Shown piece by piece: positions 38,420 through 64,000 of a DNA stretch of 64,000 nt. Within the stretch, counting starts at the first letter, position 1. Each line of letters begins with the position of its first letter. Source of the DNA: Candidatus Caldarchaeum sp. (lineage in GTDB: Archaea > Thermoproteota > Nitrososphaeria_A > Caldarchaeales > Caldarchaeaceae); the NCBI GenBank assembly GCA_033580815.1, contig JAVQUC010000002.1:91150-155149 (forward strand), in the 5' to 3' direction. The notes under the pieces were generated by a model. That model did not search any database and was not told where the DNA came from. It saw nothing but the letters and a program-made list of their open reading frames with translations. The translations under genes and the position numbers were made by a program.

Positions 38420-38543
38420 TCCCGCGGGCAGGATTTGAACCTGCGACCACCCGGTATCCATGTAGCCTGGCGGGCTGAGCAAACGGCACAGCCTTGGGCT
38501 GACCGCTACAGCCGGGCGCTCTACCAGGCTGAGCTACCGCGGG
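38420..38543 (-). tRNA. tRNA-Tyr (GTA) with a 50-nt intron at the canonical 37/38 position
   Basis: Exons give CCCGCGG-TA-GCTCAGCCTGGTAGAGC-G-CCCGG-CTGTAG/A-CCGGG-TGGTC-GCAGGTTCAAATCCTGC-CCGCGGG-A. The C1:G72 pair is the archaeal Tyr identity pair. Confidence 0.88.
38456..38505 (-). other. tRNA-Tyr intron
   Basis: Intron sequence CGGTCAGCCCAAGGCTGTGCCGTTTGCTCAGCCCGCCAGGCTACATGGAT. The internal CUACA can pair with the exon UGUAG (anticodon region), as expected for a bulge-helix-bulge substrate. Boundaries are accurate to within 1-2 nt. Confidence 0.7.
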
Positions 38544-55014: not shown

Positions 55015-55936
55015 GTTCTTTCACCTTTGCTATGAAAACGTCTTCGAGCGACCTCAGAACGAGTTTAAACTCTTTCAAACCATGGCCCGACACCACGATT
55101 GTTCTGGCTATTTCTTCACGTGGGTCGGTGGAGTTTGCGAGACGTATGAAAAGGGTTGTCCCGTCCGTTTGTACATCTTCCACACCCTGTATTCTTTTCA
55201 AAGCTGTAAGAAGCACGTCTTCGGCTGGTCGCCCTAGAGTCACAGAGACAATTTTCTTAGATGTCCGCAAGTTTTCCACAAGCTCTTCCAGAACCGTTCT
55301 GCCAAGGTAGATCATGCCGATTCGGTCCGCGAGTTTCTCGACCTCGTAAAGTTCGTGAGAAGAAAACAGAATTGTCTTCCCCATTTTTTTCAGTTCGTAC
55401 AGAACGTCGCGGATGTGGGCTCTTCCCACCGGGTCGACGCCGAGCATCGGCTCATCCAGAACCAGCAGAGGTGGGTCACCGATGAGGGCCTGCCCTATGG
55501 AAAGCCTCTGCAACATCCCCTTCGAGAAGTTACCCACCTTCCTTTTGGCGTGGTTGACGAGTCCCGTAAGCTCGAGAATTTGCCTGACCTCTTTGTCCGC
55601 TTCGTTTCCGTGAATTTTCTTCATGACGCAGGTTGTCTTAAGAAGCTTTTCAGCGGAGAAAAACGGCGGGAAAACTGGGATTTCCGGGGAGTAACCCACC
55701 AGATTGTTTACCTTCTCCGGTTGTTCGAAGGGGTCGAACTCAAAAACTCTAACATCGCCGGAGGAGGGCTTGAGCAGACCCAGCACCGCTCTCAGAGTCG
55801 TGGTTTTGCCGGAGCCGTTAGGCCCAACGAGACCGTAAACTTCATTCTTCCTTATGGTAAGAGAAACCGGCCCTACCTTAACCTTGTCACCATAGACTTT
55901 CGTCAACGAAGAGACTTTTACGACTTCGTTCATCAC
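55001..55936 (-). CDS. ABC transporter ATP-binding protein (ABC-2/CcmA-like, with C-terminal extension)
   Basis: Walker A GPNGSGKTT, signature FSKGMLQRL, Walker B LLVLDEP, H-loop SSHEL. Confidence 0.9.
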   Translation of the reverse strand: MMNEVVKVSSLTKVYGDKVKVGPVSLTIRKNEVYGLVGPNGSGKTTTLRAVLGLLKPSSGDVRVFEFDPFEQPEKVNNLVGYSPEIPVFPPFFSAEKLLKTTCVMKKIHGNEADKEVRQILELTGLVNHAKRKVGNFSKGMLQRLSIGQALIGDPPLLVLDEPMLGVDPVGRAHIRDVLYELKKMGKTILFSSHELYEVEKLADRIGMIYLGRTVLEELVENLRTSKKIVSVTLGRPAEDVLLTALKRIQGVEDVQTDGTTLFIRLANSTDPREEIARTIVVSGHGLKEFKLVLRSLEDVFIAKVKEHVGG

Positions 55937-56817
55937 ACGTAGTGTGCCTTCCTATGGCCGCTTTCAAAAGTTCTGCGTCCAAGCTTTACAGCCGCCAGAC
56001 CCACTGCTGCCAAAGTAGCCGCACCGACTATTCCAAACACTGCCACTCGTTCAGTTTGGTCGTTATTCGCCGATGCCGTTTTCGGTTTCACAACGTCAGC
56101 ATCAGCTTCTCGAACTGGGGCGAACGAAGACAAAACGTTATATTGGTTGAACAGCTGAGAATCTCCGGTAGTCGAAGCAAGCATCGCCGCCAAAGTTGTC
56201 GATAAACTACTGTTTGCGACTTCGGCCGTGAACTGAGTCAAATCAACGTTGCTGTCCTTTAGAAAGAGCGTGTATTCGACGGTTTTTCCTCCCGAACTAA
56301 GGCGTAAAAACAGGCTGTAGATGACGTTGGATTCTGCGATTGTTTCGGCTTTGCCTTCGATGTTGGTCGTGGAGTCGCGTTGTCTTGTAGTTGCCGATAT
56401 TCGGTAGACGTTTGTCTGATATGATATTCCGCCGACTGTTCGCTGGTTTTCACCGGTTTTGGAAACCGAAAGGCTGTAACTTATGTTTCCCCCTTCTTTC
56501 GTTATCCTGTATTCGCCCTCTAAGGACGCAAAGTCGATGATAGGAGGTTCGAAAAATCTGGATGGTAGGTTCTTCTCCACGAATGCGGTTCCGTCGTTAA
56601 AAGTTGCTTCATACCGGAGCCTGAGATTGCCGGAGCCCAGATTCTCGACGACTGACACGGTTAAGCTACCGGCGACAACTACGCTGTCGGAAGCAACGAC
56701 TTCGTAACCGTAACTGAAGAAAGAGCCTGTTTCCGGCTGAGCAGCCGCTCCTAACAGTACGCTAAGCACGACCATCGAGACCGATGCAACTGTTAAGGGT
56801 CTCCCGAGAAAATTCAT
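55933..56817 (-). CDS. Exported beta-rich protein with C-terminal TM anchor (unknown function)
   Basis: N-terminal signal/anchor MNFLGRPLTVASVSMVVLSVLLGAAAQP, a Ser/Thr/Asn-rich beta-like body, and C-terminal VAVFGIVGAATLAAVGLAAV followed by a basic tail. ATG 56817 lies about 26 nt from the TATATAAA box; the ORF track start is 56862. Confidence 0.6.
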   Translation of the reverse strand: MNFLGRPLTVASVSMVVLSVLLGAAAQPETGSFFSYGYEVVASDSVVVAGSLTVSVVENLGSGNLRLRYEATFNDGTAFVEKNLPSRFFEPPIIDFASLEGEYRITKEGGNISYSLSVSKTGENQRTVGGISYQTNVYRISATTRQRDSTTNIEGKAETIAESNVIYSLFLRLSSGGKTVEYTLFLKDSNVDLTQFTAEVANSSLSTTLAAMLASTTGDSQLFNQYNVLSSFAPVREADADVVKPKTASANNDQTERVAVFGIVGAATLAAVGLAAVKLGRRTFESGHRKAHYV

Positions 56818-56837
56818 ACCATTTCGTCTGCCGAACG

Positions 56838-56847
56838 CTATATAAAT
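56838..56847. promoter_or_regulatory. TATA box (CTATATAAAT) in the divergent spacer
   Basis: It lies between the minus-strand ATG 56817 and the plus-strand ATGs 56882/56900. It is the only strong AT element in the spacer, so it may serve one or both directions. Confidence 0.35.
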
Positions 56848-56881
56848 CTGCGCGATGTTCAACCATTTATACGATCACTGC

Positions 56882-58297
56882 ATGAAGGGGTCGTTAGAAA
56901 TGGGAACAGATAGCCTTGAGGACTTGAGACAAGATACGCGTAGGCTCGCGGTGGAGATTGTCAGGCTTTTGGCGACGCGGAGAGAGTTTGTGAAGAAAAT
57001 TGGGGAGATCAAGCGTTCGATGGGCGCGGATGTTGTGCAGCCTTCCGTGGAAGCTGCGGTGCGGCAAGCCATGATGGAGGAGGCTGAGAAGTACGGAATC
57101 CCGCATGAAACGGTTCAGCGTCTTGCAACGGTGATTTTCTCAGACGCCGTCGAACTTCAGCTTAAGCCAAAATCCAGTCTTACGCACTTCGACATCCTCC
57201 GGAGAGCAGTAGAACTCCAGCGAGGGGGCTATGAAGTGCAACGACTCGAAGTGGGCGAGCCAGACTTAGGAGCGCCGACGGAAGTAAGACAATCGGTTGC
57301 CGAAGCAGTGCTGGGAGGATTCGCGAGGTACGTTGATTCGAGGGGAATATCGGAACTCCGGTCAATGCTCGCTAAACATCTCTTCGAGAAATACGGCGTC
57401 GAAATCAACCCGAACAACATCATCGTTACTCCGGGGGGAAGGTTCGCGATATACGCAGCCGTCAGGACACTTCTCCGCGAAGGCGATGAGCTGCTCGTCA
57501 TCGACCCGTCGTGGCCGATGTACAGGCAGGTCTGTGCATTTGTCGGTGCGCGTTCCGTTCACGTGAAAACCAGTCTCAAAGACGGTTGGACACCAAAACT
57601 CGAGGACATCGAAAAACACATCAGCCCGGCGACCAAGGCTCTTGTTCTAAACTATCCCAACAACCCGACGGGAAAGATCATCGACCGAAAGACCTTCGAC
57701 AAAATCGTAGAACTCGCCGAACAGAAAAACATCACCGTCATCAGCGACGAAGTTTACGCCGACTATGTCAAGGATTCGCACGTGAGCATCCTAGGCAGAG
57801 GAAACTTAAAACATGTACTGGTTCAGTCCTTCTCGAAAAGCTACGGAATGACAGGCTATCGAATAGGATACGTAGTCGCCGACGAAGCACTAATCGCTAA
57901 GATGGCGTCAGTTTTGAGCTTGATAATGACATGCGTCCCGGAGTTCATCCAGCACGGTGCTCTGACCGCACTTTCTTTGAGGGAGGCTCCCAAACAATAC
58001 GCAGAAATAATGATGAAGAGAATGGAGATAGCTGTTCGCGAGCTTGAGAAGATAAACGTCGAGTTTTACAGGCCGGATGGAGGAATGTATGTCTTCCCTA
58101 GAATCGGGTCGGAAAACGTCGACGGAATCAATCTGGCGTTTGAGCTGCTTGAGTCGAAAGGTGTTGCAGTTGCTCCCGGCTCAATATTCGGTGGTTACGA
58201 TGACTTCGTAAGAATTTCGTTGGGAGCTCCGGAGCAGTCGATAGCCAAGGGGATAAGGCTGCTGGGAGAATTTCTGAAGGAAAAGGGAAGGGCGTAG
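56882..58297 (+). CDS. Fusion protein: AroQ-type chorismate mutase domain plus class I/II aminotransferase
   Basis: The N-terminal ~90 aa (LEDLRQDTRRLAVEIVRLLATRREFVKKIGEIKR...IFSDAVELQ) match the CM type II helix bundle. The remainder is an aspartate/aromatic aminotransferase (LEVGEPDLGAP, NYPNNPTG, SFSKSYGMTGYRIGY with the PLP lysine). The start is 56882 or 56900. Confidence 0.8.
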   Translation: MKGSLEMGTDSLEDLRQDTRRLAVEIVRLLATRREFVKKIGEIKRSMGADVVQPSVEAAVRQAMMEEAEKYGIPHETVQRLATVIFSDAVELQLKPKSSLTHFDILRRAVELQRGGYEVQRLEVGEPDLGAPTEVRQSVAEAVLGGFARYVDSRGISELRSMLAKHLFEKYGVEINPNNIIVTPGGRFAIYAAVRTLLREGDELLVIDPSWPMYRQVCAFVGARSVHVKTSLKDGWTPKLEDIEKHISPATKALVLNYPNNPTGKIIDRKTFDKIVELAEQKNITVISDEVYADYVKDSHVSILGRGNLKHVLVQSFSKSYGMTGYRIGYVVADEALIAKMASVLSLIMTCVPEFIQHGALTALSLREAPKQYAEIMMKRMEIAVRELEKINVEFYRPDGGMYVFPRIGSENVDGINLAFELLESKGVAVAPGSIFGGYDDFVRISLGAPEQSIAKGIRLLGEFLKEKGRA

Positions 58298-59160
58298 TGC
58301 AGACGTTAGGGGCCGCCGTGATCGGCGCGGGTCCCATGGGCCTCTGGACCGCTAACCATTTGGCCAGAAGAGGCTATTCGGTAAGAGTTTACGACATAAA
58401 AGGAGAGAAGATCAACAATATTCCTAGAACGGGCAGGGTATCTGCTGCGGAGAACTTCGAAGAAGCAGTCAAACATGGTTCGGTCATCTTTTCGGCTGTC
58501 GGAACGAAAAATAGCTCGACAGTCATTAGAAAAATCATCACGAACCATCAAGAAAAAATAGTCGTCGACATTTCTTCGGTGAAGACACCCGTCGTCAAAT
58601 CGCTCGAAAAAGTGACGACACGAAACAACCTGGTAGTCTTAACTCATCCTCTCTTTGGTCCTGGGACGAAGAAACTCGAGGACAAGACCGTCCTTTTCGT
58701 TCCTTTCAGAAAAAAAGCCTCTGAGTACAGAATTTGTAAAGCTCTGTTTTCGCCATGTAGAATCGTTACTGTTTCCGCCGCACAGCACGACAGAATGATG
58801 GCAGCAGCGATGGCCTTGCCAAGGGCCTTTCTTCTGACGATGCTCGACGTCTGGAGAAGGGCCGGAGTCGAAGATCTAACCTTCAGCCAGAGAGCCATCC
58901 GTTTGGCGGCCTCCACGATACTTACTGAAAACCCATCCCTCGCAGTGGAGATAATCGCCTATAACCCTTATTCGACGTTAACAATCAAGCAAGCTCTCAC
59001 GAGTGTGAAGAAGATGGTCCAAAACCCTTCTGAAAACATCAAGAACATATACACTCGTCTAAAGACTAAAACCCAAAAGCGGGAATACATCCAGATCTAC
59101 TCTCTCCTGGAAAAGTCTATGGGAGTAGTGAAAAAGAAATATGCGGGAGACTCTTCTTGA
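58297..59160 (+). CDS. tyrA: Prephenate/arogenate dehydrogenase
   Basis: Rossmann VIGAGPMGLW, plus THPLFGP and AAQHDRMMAA motifs. The GTG start overlaps the upstream TAG by 1 nt. Confidence 0.82.
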   Translation: MQTLGAAVIGAGPMGLWTANHLARRGYSVRVYDIKGEKINNIPRTGRVSAAENFEEAVKHGSVIFSAVGTKNSSTVIRKIITNHQEKIVVDISSVKTPVVKSLEKVTTRNNLVVLTHPLFGPGTKKLEDKTVLFVPFRKKASEYRICKALFSPCRIVTVSAAQHDRMMAAAMALPRAFLLTMLDVWRRAGVEDLTFSQRAIRLAASTILTENPSLAVEIIAYNPYSTLTIKQALTSVKKMVQNPSENIKNIYTRLKTKTQKREYIQIYSLLEKSMGVVKKKYAGDSS

Positions 59161-59705
59161 CTTGCGGTATGCGGACGGATGACCTTTTGTCCAAAATTTA
59201 TTCGAAGAGAGAAACGAGGGAATTTCTTGAGATGCAGGTGTCTGATGAACTGGTTACCAAGGTATTAGAGGCGGGAAGGCTTGCGGGAAGCGCGAAGAAT
59301 CGTCAACCCTGGGTTTTCATCCTCGTCCGTGAAAAAGCAAACCTCGAAAAGCTGTCTGAGTTTGGACATCATGCTCAGCATCTTCCAAGAGCTGCTTTCG
59401 CCGTCGTGATAGCGGTTCCAGACACGTACGTGCAGGATCGGTTTGATGCGGGTAGGGCCGCGCAGAACATGATGCTTGCGGCTCACGTGCTCGGGTTGGG
59501 TTCATGTCCGATAACCTTGCATGAGGAGGAGGAAGCGAAACAGTTCTTGGGTCTGCCGCCTGAACTCAGGATAGCGGTCTGCATAGCTTTCGGATACCCC
59601 AAGCCAGTCAAGAGAAAAGGCCGTGTCATCCGAAAACCGCTCGAGCAAATTCTTCATGTAGAAAAATACGGTAAACCAAGTGGTGGTGCGAGTTTAACTT
59701 TTTAG
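59157..59705 (+). CDS. Nitroreductase-family flavoprotein
   Basis: 182 aa with AGSAKNRQPWVF and QNMMLAAHVLGLGSCP, typical of the family. It overlaps the tyrA stop by 4 nt. Confidence 0.8.
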   Translation: MTCGMRTDDLLSKIYSKRETREFLEMQVSDELVTKVLEAGRLAGSAKNRQPWVFILVREKANLEKLSEFGHHAQHLPRAAFAVVIAVPDTYVQDRFDAGRAAQNMMLAAHVLGLGSCPITLHEEEEAKQFLGLPPELRIAVCIAFGYPKPVKRKGRVIRKPLEQILHVEKYGKPSGGASLTF

Positions 59706-59753
59706 ACAGGCCGAACATCAATAGAATTGCGGAAGTTGTGTCGGTGAATAGTT

Positions 59754-59836
59754 GCCGGGGTCCCCAAGCCTGGTATGGGGCTGGTCTGCTAAACCAGTGG
59801 CCTCTGGCCGCGCGGGTTCAAATCCCGCCCCCGGCG
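59754..59836 (+). tRNA. tRNA-Ser (GCT)
   Basis: GCCGGGG...CCCCGGC-G acceptor, anticodon arm CTGGT-CTGCTAA-ACCAG, long variable arm TGGCCTCTGGCCGC, T-loop GGTTCAAATCC. Confidence 0.88.
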
Positions 59837-60264
59837 TCCTCACGCATTCTCAGAATCTCTTTTATCTCATTCGCGACCTTCCTGCATGCCTTTTCAACTT
59901 CCTCAGAAAGCTGTTCTCCGTACCGGAAATCCTTTCCCTCGATACCAAAAATCAAAACTTCACCTGAAAACGTGGCTGTTTCCAAAAGCAACGCCACTAT
60001 GTCTTTGAGTGAGATTCCATGGGTTGAAAAGGCTCGGGTAGCATCCTTCCCGATGTCTGGTAGTCGTAATCGATGAATTGTTCCGGGACGCCCTCTGTTT
60101 TCTACTGCGTCGACGATGATGAGCAGTTGAACTTCTTCAGATAATTGATTTAACAGCTCGGCCGGGGCACGAGCGACGACAAGTTCGGGAATGTCTCCGA
60201 GGAGCTCAGCAACCCTGAAACCGGCTCCGTCATCACTCCTCAACCTATTGCCCAGACAAACCAC
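59818..60264 (-). CDS. NiFe-hydrogenase maturation endopeptidase (HycI/HybD family)
   Basis: VVCLGNRLRSDDGAGFRV, IIVDAV and STHGISL motifs. GTG 60264 lies 17 nt after the large-subunit stop. The ORF track's 49-codon upstream extension lies inside hydA. Confidence 0.8.
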   Translation of the reverse strand: MVCLGNRLRSDDGAGFRVAELLGDIPELVVARAPAELLNQLSEEVQLLIIVDAVENRGRPGTIHRLRLPDIGKDATRAFSTHGISLKDIVALLLETATFSGEVLIFGIEGKDFRYGEQLSEEVEKACRKVANEIKEILRMREDAGGGI

Positions 60265-60280
60265 CTTCAGCTTGGTCGCG

Positions 60281-61573
60281 CTACTGCTCTTCGTCAATGG
60301 TGAGTTTGAGGAAATGTGTTGCGCATGAGATGCATGGGTCGTAGTTCCTGATGGCCTGTTCGAAACGCCATAGGGCTTTTTCTTTCGGGAGCTTGATGAG
60401 CTTAGGCGCAAGCGCTCTTAGGTCGTCTTCGATTCTTTTCTGGTTTTGGGAAGTAGGCGCCACTATTTTTGCCGAAGTAACTCTTCCTTCCGAGTCGACG
60501 TCATAGCGGTGGTACAAAATTCCCCGCGGTGCTTCGGTGCAGCCATGTCCCCTACCAGCTCTAACCGTGAACTCAGCACGGGGCTTAGACGGTTCGCGAT
60601 AATCATCGATTATCCTCAAAGCCTCTCCGAAAGCATAGACAGTTTCCGCGAGCCTCGCCACGATGCTTTTGAACGGGTTTCTGCAAGGAATTTTAAAGCC
60701 GACTTCCTTCAGCTTCTCTCTGGTGTAGTCATCTAGCTTGTCGTAGTTGATGTTGATTCGGGCCAAAGGCCCCACAAGGTACGAGCCTCTTCCGATGATG
60801 TAGGAATGGAGAGCGTTGGCGTACGGTACCTGCTCCTCGGCAAAATGGTCTTCATATTCTTCAACTTCTATGTCCAGCCCCTTGTTCGAAACTATTCTCC
60901 CTTCGTTGAACGGATATTCAGTGGGATGCCGCAGGGCGACGAATTCGTAATCCTGCTCAAACTCGGGGAAATTCAGCTCCGAGACCCATTCGAGAAGTTC
61001 AGTCGAAAGCTGCAATCCTTCCTTCAGCACCGGCTTTAACGTCTCGAGCTCACGTCGCGTAAACAGACGATAAAACCCTCCAACACAAGCAGAAACAGGA
61101 TGTATTTCCCTTCCACCGATGAAGGCTACGATTTCGTTACCAATTTTTTTGGCCTTAAGGGCTTTTTTCACGATTTCGGGATGGCGCTTGGTCATCTGTA
61201 GGGCGTCGTCGTATCCAAGGAAGTCAGGCGCGTGCAGTAAGAACGCATGCAGTAGATGACTTTCTATCCATTCTCCGCAGTAGAACAGCCTGCGAAGTGC
61301 GCGTATCGGCGGCTCAATTTTGACATCGAATATCTTTTCCAAGGCGTGGATCGAGCTCATTTGGTATGCTACGGGGCAGATTCCGCAAATGCGGGCGGTT
61401 ATGTCGGGCACGTCGTAGTACATCCTACCTAACAGAAACGCTTCGAAAAGACGCGGGGGCTCGAAAATCTTGAGCTTCAAGTCGACGACCTCCCCTTTCT
61501 TCGTCTTAATGTAGAGCGATGCTTCGCCTTCAACGCGGGCGAGATAATCTACTTTATAGGTTCTCTCGGTCAA
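60281..61573 (-). CDS. hydA: NiFe-hydrogenase large subunit, group 3b (sulfhydrogenase alpha) type
   Basis: N-terminal Ni-binding [10 protein letters not shown] and C-terminal DPCISCATH followed by a short cleavable tail. 430 aa, matching the alpha subunit of Pyrococcus-type sulfhydrogenase. Confidence 0.88.
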
Positions 61574-62337
61574 GGCTCAGCCTCCACCTCCCTAAAACCA
61601 GGGGCCCACGCGTTGAAAAGCCTGTAGAAGTTGACCACCTCTCGTTTTTCGAGACCAAGCTCGACGAACCTCTTGGACAACGACTGGGTATTAAGTGACT
61701 CTTTCGGCCCGAAGCATCCATAGCATCCCCTTCCATAGGAAGGGCAAAGTGCCCCACAACCGGCGTGTGTAACTGGCCCCAGACACGGAATTCCCCGGGC
61801 AACCATTACGCAGACAACTCCCTGAATCTTGCACTCCATACAGACACTGTGGTTCATTATTTTCGGCGCTCTCCCATACATATAGGATGAAAGAACTTCG
61901 TAAAGCCTGTGCTTGTTTATCGGACAGCCTCGCAGTTCGTAGTCGACTTGAACGTGGTAGGAGATTGGCGTTGATTTGTCGAGCGTCTCGATGTATTCTG
62001 GCTTGGCGTAGACGTACCGCATAAATTCGTCAGAGCCTTTCCAGTTTCGTAAAGCCTGGATGCCGCCGGCGGTAGCGCATGCACCAATAGCTATTAGGAA
62101 TCGGCTCTTCTTCCTGACTTCTTTTATGGTTTCAGCGTCGTGAGGAGTTGTGATGCTTCCCTCCACGAGAGCTATGTCGTACGGTCCTTTGACTACGGCC
62201 TTGCTTGCTTCGAGAAAGTAGGCGATTTCGAATTTCTGGCCGATCGTGAGGAGTTCGTCCTCGAGGTCTAGGATGGTGAGTTGGCAGCCGTCACAGGACG
62301 CGAATTTGAAAACAGCTATCTTAGGCTTTTTGCTCAT
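61570..62337 (-). CDS. hydD: NiFe-hydrogenase small subunit (delta)
   Basis: [13 protein letters not shown] proximal-cluster motif, then GACATAGG and a C-terminal Cys-rich region. ATGA overlap with hydA. Confidence 0.85.
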
Positions 62338-62340
62338 GGC

Positions 62341-63198
62341 TCATAACTCCCTCCTGTCGAAGAAATGAGAAATGTTGCTGAACCTGAAAACCGGCCCGTG
62401 CTTGCAGACAAAGTACGGCCCAAACTGACAGTGTCCGCAAAGGCCTACGCCGCATTTCATGTTCCTCTCCATCGAGAGGAATATTCTGTCTTCGGGAACT
62501 CCTTGGTTCTTCAGCTCGAGCACGGTGAATTTCATCATGATTTCAGGCCCGCAGACTAAGGCAAACGTCTTTTTTGGGTCGAGTCGGATGCTTCTGAAAA
62601 GGGTCGTGACCACCCCGATGTGTCCACGCCATCGCTCATCGCCCCTATCAACAGTCACCAAAAGTTGTGTGTCGAGCCTGCTTCTCCAACGGCTTAGCTC
62701 TTTCTTGTAGAGCAGCTCCGGGGGGCTGCGGGCGCCATACAATATGAAGAATTGGCCGTATTTTTCCCTGTTCTCGATGATATGCCTTATCGCGGGCCTA
62801 AGCGGCGCCAACCCGATACCGCCCGCCACAACGATGACATCGTGCCCTACAGCATCCTCTAACGGCCATCCAGTTCCGAAAGGTCCTCTGACACCTATGG
62901 TGTCGTTCTCGCGGCTCCTGACGATCGCTCTGGTGACTGGTCCCACGGCTCTCACTGTGAAGAATATCGTGTTGTCTTTGGGAGATAGTGCGCTTAACGA
63001 GATGGGTGTTTCGCCGACTCCGTAAACGTATAGCATGGCGAATTGCCCTGGAAGAGCGGTGAAACGCCTGTCGTCCAAAGGCCTTACGCCTAATGTGTAT
63101 GTGTCTGGGTTTTCCTTCGTTTTAGAAGTCACTTTGAACCAGTTGATGTGGAAAGTCTCGACTCCGGGGAATGTTTCAATGGTTTGGACAACTGTCAT
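62341..63198 (-). CDS. hydG: Sulfhydrogenase gamma subunit (FAD/NAD(P)H-binding, 2Fe-2S; PyrK-like)
   Basis: Ferredoxin-reductase fold (RPLDDRRFTALPGQF, GGIGLAPL) and C-terminal CGVGLCGHCQ. Confidence 0.85.
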   Translation of the reverse strand: MTVVQTIETFPGVETFHINWFKVTSKTKENPDTYTLGVRPLDDRRFTALPGQFAMLYVYGVGETPISLSALSPKDNTIFFTVRAVGPVTRAIVRSRENDTIGVRGPFGTGWPLEDAVGHDVIVVAGGIGLAPLRPAIRHIIENREKYGQFFILYGARSPPELLYKKELSRWRSRLDTQLLVTVDRGDERWRGHIGVVTTLFRSIRLDPKKTFALVCGPEIMMKFTVLELKNQGVPEDRIFLSMERNMKCGVGLCGHCQFGPYFVCKHGPVFRFSNISHFFDRREL

Positions 63199-63680
63199 TC
63201 AGCCTTCACCGCCGGTGCTCCGTATATATCTAACAGCCTGAGCCTCGCCGCCTTCAGTCTGTCACCAACAACGTTAACGATTCTCTTGTATATCTCGCAC
63301 CCGAGACTTGCGTCTTGCTCCATCATCCTCAAGACTTTTTCGCTATCAAAAGTGATTGCGAGGGTGTTTTCCAAAACGGTCGCGCCCGCTGTCTTCTTGA
63401 ACGGTGGGATCAGCGAGGACCATCCCAAAACCTCCCCGGAGCCGACTGTTTCGAAGCGAAACTCTCCACGACCGGGAACGTAGAAATACAGCGCGACCAA
63501 ACCATAGACTATTAGGTAAAATCTCCTGTGAATTTCGTTTTCCTCGAAGACCTTTTGACCGGCCGTGAACCGTGAAAGGCTGGCGGCTGAGGCAAGCGCC
63601 TCGATCCTTTCTTCTGACAGTCCTTTAGTGAATGGGTGGTCTTTCAGTAGTGTAATCAGTTCAACGTGCTCCTGACTCAT
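63195..63680 (-). CDS. Stand-alone cyclic-nucleotide-binding-like (CAP effector) domain protein embedded in the hydrogenase operon
   Basis: 161 aa from ATG 63680. [54 protein letters not shown]...[12 protein letters not shown]...[22 protein letters not shown] follows the cNMP-binding beta-roll pattern. There is no DNA-binding or other domain. ATGA overlaps occur at both ends (with the hydB stop and the hydG start). Confidence 0.7.
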
Positions 63681-64000
63681 CTGTTCATCACCTCGGTCTT
63701 TCGTATTTTCGCGGCTTCTTCTGTGATGTCGATGCCGACCGGGCACCATGTGATGCACCTGCCGCAACCCACGCAGCCCATCATTCCGAACTGGTCTACC
63801 CATGTCGCGAGCTTGTGCATGAACCATTGCCTGTACCTGCTCATCCTACTTACCCGTATGGAACCGCCGTGAATGTATGAGAAGTCAGCCGTGAAACATG
63901 AATCCATACGCCTCCATCTCTCAACATAATCTCCGTCAAGAAATGTAGTTTCTTCGATGATGTTGCAGAAACATGTTGGACACACGAGGGTGCAGTTGGC
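63677..64000 (-). CDS. hydB: Sulfhydrogenase beta subunit (4Fe-4S, AsrA-like), 5' part beyond window
   Basis: The frame is open to the window edge ([13 protein letters not shown]...[18 protein letters not shown]) and carries the Cys motifs of the HydB/AsrA family. Confidence 0.8.

Follow-up and report, generated by a model that had tools for sequence, protein, structure and literature searches.

A 161-codon open reading frame (ORF) in the window, by which we mean the whole 64,000-nucleotide stretch of Candidatus Caldarchaeum sp. contig JAVQUC010000002.1 analyzed here, probably encodes a fifth, diaphorase-associated accessory subunit of a group 3b [NiFe]-hydrogenase, comparable to HoxI of Cupriavidus necator (Ralstonia eutropha). 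The gene is located on the minus strand between hydB and hydG, the two diaphorase genes of the hydrogenase operon, and its product is a single domain of the cyclic-nucleotide-binding (cNMP) type. Related proteins occupy the same slot in many phyla, are in some lineages fused to HydB, and carry a characteristic Gly-Trp-Ser (GWS) motif in the cassette that in cyclic nucleotide receptors contacts the ligand.

In a Pfam search, the 161-amino-acid (aa) protein matched PF00027 with 43.5 bits (gathering score 27.5; E = 3e-11) over model positions 3-89 of 89, and no domain besides PF00027 was found. An AlphaFold2 model built from 16 orthologues (predicted local distance difference test score 83; predicted template modelling score, pTM, 0.77) showed N-terminal helices, an eight-stranded beta-roll and a 30-residue C-helix (residues 124-154) that stops about 7 residues before the C-terminus. 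When compared with known structures by Foldseek, the model matched GlxR, M. tuberculosis CRP and the stand-alone cNMP domain 3gyd with a probability of 1.0 and template modelling scores of 0.69-0.77 (best 0.74-0.77). No helix-turn-helix (HTH) or other output domain was detected by Pfam, in the AlphaFold2 model or by Foldseek. The top PDB match by sequence was 3mdp, an orphan structural-genomics protein, with CRP, FNR and GlxR next, and an exact-sequence look-up returned no matching record. The first-pass annotation of this DNA, made from the sequence alone, had described a stand-alone cNMP-binding-type domain without an output module and had proposed a PF00027 hmmscan and AlphaFold/Foldseek as checks of the fold. 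Both were positive, with PF00027 above threshold and a CAP-type roll in the model.

The hydrogenase operon, from hydB to the maturation protease, comprises the following genes.

63677-64000, minus strand: hydB (beta subunit; 4Fe-4S diaphorase/AsrA-like), 3' part only, running off the window end; TGA at 63677-63679; PF17179 (Fer4_22), 104 bits; top NCBIfam models sulfhyd_HydB and ShyB.
63195-63680, minus strand: stand-alone cNMP-binding-like domain gene, 161 aa; PF00027; candidate HoxI-like accessory subunit of the 3b hydrogenase.
62341-63198, minus strand: hydG (gamma subunit; FAD/NAD(P)-binding and 2Fe-2S domains); PF00175 and PF10418; NCBIfam cytochrome-c3 hydrogenase gamma, ShyC and HydG; E = 1.4e-46 to PDB 9nez_C, the gamma subunit of P. 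furiosus sulfhydrogenase 1.
61570-62337, minus strand: hydD (delta subunit; small hydrogenase subunit); PF01058 (Oxidored_q6); NCBIfam sulfhyd_HydD and ShyD.
60281-61573, minus strand: hydA (alpha subunit; [NiFe] large subunit), TTG start; PF00374 (NiFeSe_Hases); NCBIfam ShyA and HydA; E about 1e-65 to PDB 9nez_D and 5yxy_A.
59818-60411, minus strand: HycI-type hydrogenase maturation endopeptidase; PF01750 and TIGR00072 (100.9 bits); coordinates of the maximal ORF.

The four sulfhydrogenase-like subunits and the endopeptidase identify a group 3b [NiFe]-hydrogenase operon, a class assigned here by Pfam, NCBIfam and PDB matches. The hydrogenase genes did not reach the cut-offs of the Pyrococcus equivalogs, as one would expect of so distant a lineage. 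The profile matches bore out the gene order and strand given by the first-pass annotation (partial hydB, the extra ORF, hydG, hydD, hydA, protease), and the two junction sequences confirmed its claim that the extra ORF is coupled to both neighbours by ATGA. On the minus strand, AACAGATGAGTCAG (...AACAG-ATGA-GTCAG...) contains the hydB TGA at 63677-63679 overlapping the ATG of the cNMP gene at 63678-63680, and GCTGAATGACAGTT (...GCTGA-ATGA-CAGTT...) contains the TGA of the cNMP gene at 63195-63197 overlapping the hydG ATG at 63196-63198. The hydD/hydA junction, also read as ATGA at that time, proved to be TTGA, in which the TGA of hydD overlaps the TTG start of hydA; a gap of 3 nt lies between hydG and hydD. 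The true start of hycI is probably downstream of 60411 and overlaps the end of hydA as in orthologous loci, three of which (L001, L004 and L006) have the protease at the equivalent position. Scans of 59500-64000 for sigma-70 promoters and intrinsic terminators, with models unsuited to an archaeon, gave hits at chance level. Directly downstream of the operon, a tRNA-Ser (GCT) gene at 59753-59839 on the plus strand shares ~20 nt with the 3' end of the hycI ORF. In the window this tRNA gene and unrelated genes follow the operon, and hypF/hypCDE do so in C. subterraneum.

The nearest relatives of the protein were found in Candidatus Caldarchaeum and other Nitrososphaerota metagenome-assembled genomes (MAGs). 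These 15 orthologues share 55-99% identity and 40 invariant positions, indicating that the 161-codon ORF is a real gene. The order hypA-hypB-hydB-X-hydG-hydD-hydA-hycI, where X is the cNMP gene, was present in C. subterraneum (BA000048) and in three other Caldarchaeales/Nitrososphaerota genomes. Genes in the archaeal orthologous loci overlap by 4 nt or 1 nt, as in the window, and L001, L004 and L006 encode full-length HydB orthologues of 372-380 aa. Because the gene order is kept across these relatives, the cNMP gene is a conserved operon member of an archaeal order and not an insertion peculiar to the window genome.

A profile search revealed a second tier of relatives of 155-160 aa with 30-42% identity, and the order hydB-X-hydG-hydD-hydA was observed in all three of the second-tier contexts inspected (Bryobacteraceae and two metagenomic bacteria). 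One candidate, P0016 (29% identity), was left out of the family because its neighbour is an acetyl-CoA hydrolase/acetyltransferase gene and not a hydrogenase gene. When 1.84 billion cluster representatives were searched with HMMER, more than 100 stand-alone clusters of ~155 aa were among the matches listed, with E values of 1e-25 to 1e-40. A scan of GTDB with one genome per species, seeded with alignment A3, which is smaller than the 103-sequence alignment A2 (too diverse as a seed), detected a relative in at least 587 species genomes. Locus contexts, taxonomy and gene junctions were extracted for the best 80 of these relatives. The 80 loci represent more than 12 phyla and include Acidobacteriota, Chloroflexota, Armatimonadota, Bacteroidota, Planctomycetota, Verrucomicrobiota, Actinomycetota, Gemmatimonadota, Deinococcota, Proteobacteria, WOR-3, Kryptoniota and one Bathyarchaeia archaeon. 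The window protein scored 195 bits on the hidden Markov model (HMM) of the family and, judged by this profile match, belongs to a family, widespread but so far without a name, whose ~155-165-residue proteins have a CAP-effector fold and the GWS signature.

In 65 of the 80 loci the order was hydB-X-hydG(-D-A), some of these loci being cut by contig ends, and in one more (L048) HydB reads straight into X. Thus, the survey that the first-pass annotation had proposed, for an ORF between the beta and gamma genes, located the cNMP gene there in 66 of the best 80 loci, the fused one included. Five loci had X beside hydrogenase genes in other arrangements: X-hydB-hydG-hydD(-hydA) in two, X divergent from the operon in one, X 3 kb upstream of a hydB/hydG-like pair in one, and X directly after a HoxH-like large subunit in one. 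Genes in most bacterial loci overlap or are separated by <20 nt. In the last of these arrangements (L088 805-2901, an Acidobacteriaceae MAG), a GWS member with a score of 223 bits lies immediately 3' of a large subunit that shares 38% identity with C. necator HoxH and 30% with the HydA of the window. This context indicates that the GWS family is not restricted to 3b enzymes and places its member there in a HoxI-like position. The remaining 9 of the 80 loci (L028, L031, L036, L039, L040, L041, L045, L072 and L081), mostly from Chloroflexia and one from a Mycobacterium MAG, had no hydrogenase gene within 5 kb of X, indicating that the GWS family is not exclusively a hydrogenase subunit. Neighbours of these orphans include acyltransferase, nitroreductase, RtcB, DctP-type binding protein and aldo-keto reductase genes. 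A protein in which a cNMP domain is fused to an acyltransferase (P0139) also exists.

Thirteen clusters at 90% identity (P0138 and P0226-P0237) consist of ~540-aa fusions of HydB and the cNMP domain. Mutual identity among these clusters ranges from 49 to 100%, and values as low as 49% indicate an inherited fusion and not an assembly error. The read-through fusion of L048 is distinct, with a junction sequence that differs from those of the 13 clusters. In this deltaproteobacterial MAG (L048 5454-8093), part of the HydB ORF appears frameshifted, and the next stop-free frame is 2.6 kb long and spans the hydG-hydD region; this long frame could represent one more fusion, or else a high-GC assembly with a frameshift. 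In L096 (6001-8184) and L098 (5001-7181), a second, free cNMP paralogue of 133-154 aa is encoded between the fusion gene and hydG. GYC replaces GWS in the free paralogue, and each of these operons encodes two different cNMP-like modules. By analogy with CRP or the HoxI dimer (HoxI2), two cNMP modules per operon would fit a dimeric module.

Pairwise distances among the cNMP proteins of 55 complete loci were correlated with those of HydB (r = 0.70), HydG (0.62), HydD (0.62) and HydA (0.55; Mantel p = 0.001), and the mean divergence of the cNMP protein (0.49) was close to that of HydB (0.46). This distance pattern fits co-inheritance of the cNMP protein as part of the operon unit. The retention of the slot in 66 of the 80 loci, the HydB-cNMP fusions and the co-variation with HydB favour a physical partnership between the protein and the diaphorase half of the enzyme.

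The canonical phosphate-binding cassette reads Gly-Glu-[LIV]-[AS]...Arg-[ST]-[AS], in which Glu contacts the ribose 2'-OH and Arg contacts the phosphate. In the HMMER alignment, F-G-E-L-S...P-R-T-S of GlxR maps onto L-G86-W87-S88-S89...K-K96-T97-A98 of the window protein, and the two key elements are encoded as follows.

63417-63425, minus strand: codons of Gly86-Trp87-Ser88, the family signature; Trp87 where the canonical cassette has its ribose-binding Glu.
63387-63395, minus strand: codons of Lys96-Thr97-Ala98, aligned with the canonical Arg-Thr/Ser-Ala.

The first-pass annotation had correctly read Lys-Thr-Ala in place of Arg-[Ser/Thr]-Ala and so spotted the Arg-to-Lys change, but it missed the larger change from Gly-Glu to Gly86-Trp87. 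With both Glu and Arg replaced, the window protein lacks the cassette of a functional cyclic nucleotide receptor. Gly-Trp-Ser was present in 156 of 195 stand-alone relatives, with GFS in 18, and was the sole invariant motif of the curated alignment A2. The column of the canonical Arg contained Trp in 87, Lys in 58 and Arg in only 8 of the 195; K96 was invariant among the Caldarchaeales orthologues. The window copy belongs to an archaeal subgroup that reads GWSS...K-T-A, and bacterial copies mostly read GWSW...W-x-F. Outside GWS, the most conserved positions (94-98%) were R141, L142 and R146 of the C-helix, all of which are present in the window protein. Because the two residues that contact cyclic nucleotides are both replaced, classical binding of cyclic AMP or cyclic GMP (cAMP/cGMP) by the window protein is unlikely. 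The position of G-W-S exactly within the pocket-forming cassette points to a binding site under selection and not to decay, and the conserved aromatic residue argues for either a selected pocket for a different ligand or an occluded pocket.

These results suggest a mechanism in which GWS proteins would be co-produced with the HydB and HydG of NAD(P)-linked group 3b [NiFe]-hydrogenases of the 'bacterial type', with the overlap between stop and start codons keeping the cNMP protein in a fixed ratio to both. The protein would dock at, or close to, the ferredoxin-like domain at the C-terminus of HydB, probably as a pair held together by the long C-helix, as in CRP and HoxI2, and once docked it might modulate or stabilize the diaphorase module. 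If it has a ligand, a pyridine nucleotide or other non-cyclic nucleotide would be more plausible than cAMP/cGMP, by analogy with the NADPH activation exerted through HoxI. Of the earlier proposal of a fifth, ligand-sensing subunit or regulatory factor, the part concerning a partner of the diaphorase is supported by gene position, fusions and co-variation, but the cyclic nucleotide ligand that it implied is made unlikely by the replacement of Glu and Arg.

Several observations weigh against a HoxI-like accessory subunit. The evidence on the GWS family comes from sequences, gene contexts and structure models, and a PDB search found no chain of the family accompanying any hydrogenase, 9nez and 5yxy included. 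The context counts come from the 80 best matches, a sample of loci that all carry the gene, and even among them 9 of 80 members lie outside hydrogenase loci. The correlation of the cNMP and HydB distances is partly due to shared species phylogeny. An AlphaFold2 model of a natural HydB-cNMP fusion (pTM 0.61) had a disordered, low-confidence linker and no confident arrangement of the two domains. In addition, the score of HoxI on the family HMM (46 bits) was lower than those of unrelated stand-alone cNMP proteins (84-89 bits).

The same evidence bears on explanations other than an accessory subunit. The PF00027 match and the CRP/PKG-like fold would be expected of a true cAMP/cGMP receptor that switches the hydrogenase by a second messenger, and the Caldarchaeales subgroup keeps the basic Lys96 and Thr97 at the phosphate-binding position; however, Trp87 takes the place of the ribose-binding Glu, the phosphate-binding Arg is Lys in the window protein and rare in the family, and HoxI, the sole characterized analogue, is linked to NADPH and not to a cyclic nucleotide (PMC3702609). 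We consider such a receptor very unlikely. The loss of the canonical ligand-contact residues is what a ligand-free structural module would predict, that is, a degenerate beta-roll whose C-helix dimerizes two HydBGDA units or stabilizes HydB without any sensing. The concentration of conservation on the C-helix points the same way, and the second copy kept in the fusion lineage suggests a domain pair. Against it stand the location of G-W-S within the pocket-forming cassette and the example of HoxI, which confers a ligand-dependent property (PMC3702609); a purely structural role appears unlikely, though less so than a cyclic nucleotide receptor.

A role confined to assembly is also conceivable, in which the protein would act transiently while the FeS/flavin diaphorase module is assembled or matured and would be absent from the mature enzyme. 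The operon does include maturation genes (hycI, and hypAB upstream in relatives), some family members are encoded away from hydrogenase genes, and HoxI dissociates readily from its enzyme (PMC3189943), doing so at high salt or alkaline pH. Covalent HydB fusions that remain stable across 49-100% identity are, however, hard to reconcile with a transient chaperone, and the slot between structural genes with coupling on both sides indicates stoichiometric production. We know of no chaperone that uses the CAP-effector fold, and overall we regard an assembly factor as quite improbable. The last alternative, a Crp/Fnr-type regulator of hydrogenase gene transcription, follows the source annotations, which read 'Crp/Fnr family transcriptional regulator', and a paper on Frankia that speaks of a small transcriptional regulator (PMC11879354). 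The effector domains of CRP, FNR and GlxR do have the same beta-roll and C-helix topology as the window protein, but CRP and GlxR are ~225 aa long with a C-terminal HTH, and the Glu and Arg of the cassette are Trp and Lys in the window protein. With 161 aa, PF00027 as its only domain and a model that stops ~7 residues past the C-helix, the window protein has no space for an HTH, and most of the sampled relatives are likewise stand-alone proteins of ~155-165 aa. The database name is therefore wrong and was rejected, and the chance that the protein acts as a transcriptional regulator seems to us negligible.

Hydrogenases of group 3b rank among the most widespread in soils, sediments and hot springs. 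By producing or using up H2 they are thought to keep NAD(P)H in balance, and models of the group have been built on the four-subunit Pyrococcus enzyme. The presence of a fifth gene between the diaphorase genes in many phyla, sometimes fused to hydB, suggests that the common form of the 3b enzyme has an accessory and possibly regulatory component. A more far-reaching proposal is that hundreds of bacterial and archaeal species have a five-component 3b enzyme in which a Trp-lined, non-cNMP pocket of the CAP-fold subunit senses a redox metabolite, NAD(P)H/NAD(P)+ for instance, and allosterically gates the production or uptake of H2, by a family-specific mechanism distinct from that of HoxI. We find this proposal rather doubtful as it stands; if true, the four-subunit picture derived from Pyrococcus would be incomplete for much of group 3b. 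For annotation, 'HoxI-like accessory protein of the 3b hydrogenase' would be preferable to 'Crp/Fnr transcriptional regulator'. Trp87, Lys96 and the C-helix arginines are the residues singled out for testing.

Other features of the window are separate from the hydrogenase operon. A 124-nt match to the Rfam tRNA model (57.8 bits) at 38420-38543 on the minus strand was not reported by ARAGORN and is most likely an intron-containing archaeal tRNA gene. On the plus strand, a 480-aa ORF at 56855-58297 encodes a type II chorismate mutase (PF01817, residues 24-102) fused to a class I/II aminotransferase (PF00155); behind it come a prephenate-dehydrogenase-like gene (58297-59160) and then a gene of the nitroreductase family (59157-59705); together, the genes of 56855-59705 form a compact aromatic amino-acid module. 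The neighbouring 309-aa ORF on the minus strand (55933-56862) had no Pfam match at E <= 0.001.

The gene itself has been mentioned in print. In PMC11879354, the source of the regulator label quoted above, Francci3_4499 of Frankia casuarinae is reported as a cNMP-domain gene flanked by both diaphorase genes of a group 3b cluster. PMC13332983 lists a cNMP-domain protein, WP_013415449.1, in the 3b cluster of Rhodococcus equi; in number, its accession lies between the accessions of the FAD/NAD(P)-binding and 4Fe-4S proteins. PMC12319191 states that the 3b cluster of the methanotroph 'M. acidophilus' 29 encodes 'HoxI'. Membership of these three genes in the GWS family would follow from their position and annotation. 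The bacterial loci analyzed here have the five-gene order with X between hydB and hydG, carry the same GWS family and are comparable with these published bacterial 3b clusters. In view of these mentions and of the HoxI precedent, the suggestion of the first-pass annotation that such control of a hydrogenase is undescribed does not hold. To these earlier mentions the present analysis adds how large the family is (at least 587 species from many phyla, bacterial as well as archaeal), its fusions to HydB and its GWS signature.

Compared with sulfhydrogenase I (SHI; hydBGDA) of P. furiosus and Thermococcus, the HydG and HydA of the window are clear homologues (E = 1e-46 and 1e-65), and the NCBIfam models matched by its HydB and HydD are those of sulfhydrogenases. 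The solved P. furiosus SHI (9nez) has four subunit types, in agreement with the earlier statement that the Pyrococcus-type enzyme has no such additional gene, whereas the window operon has one gene more.

The closest functional parallel is HoxI of the soluble, NAD+-reducing group 3d enzyme of C. necator H16 (Burgdorf et al. 2005, as cited in PMC3189943, PMC3702609 and PMC12319191). PMC3702609 and PMC3189943 describe HoxI as bound as a homodimer to the diaphorase module of the soluble hydrogenase, where it provides a site of NADPH activation; this activation is ascribed to the six-subunit C. necator enzyme only (PMC3702609). The hoxI gene of plasmid pHG1 follows hoxFUYHW, and its 167-aa product is a stand-alone PF00027 protein. 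BLASTP of the window protein against HoxI gave nothing significant, and hhalign of the family against HoxI gave a marginal match (probability 10.5%, E = 0.003). Together with the family-HMM score of HoxI, these results do not support the identification of the window protein as a HoxI orthologue, which was dropped; that it works like HoxI is plausible, and only the analogy is retained. HoxI retains Gly-Glu where the GWS family has Gly-Trp, hoxI sits after hoxW at the operon end whereas the window gene lies between two diaphorase genes, and the partner of HoxI is the Complex I-like HoxFU whereas the presumed partner here is the AsrA/AsrB-like HydB/HydG. Both are nevertheless stand-alone PF00027 proteins with no output domain, encoded within operons of cytoplasmic NAD(P)-linked group 3 hydrogenases, and both have lost the canonical cassette Arg (HoxI reads ...GELGFIDQTPHSLS...). 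HoxI associates with the diaphorase half of its enzyme, and it is this same half that the window protein is proposed to join.

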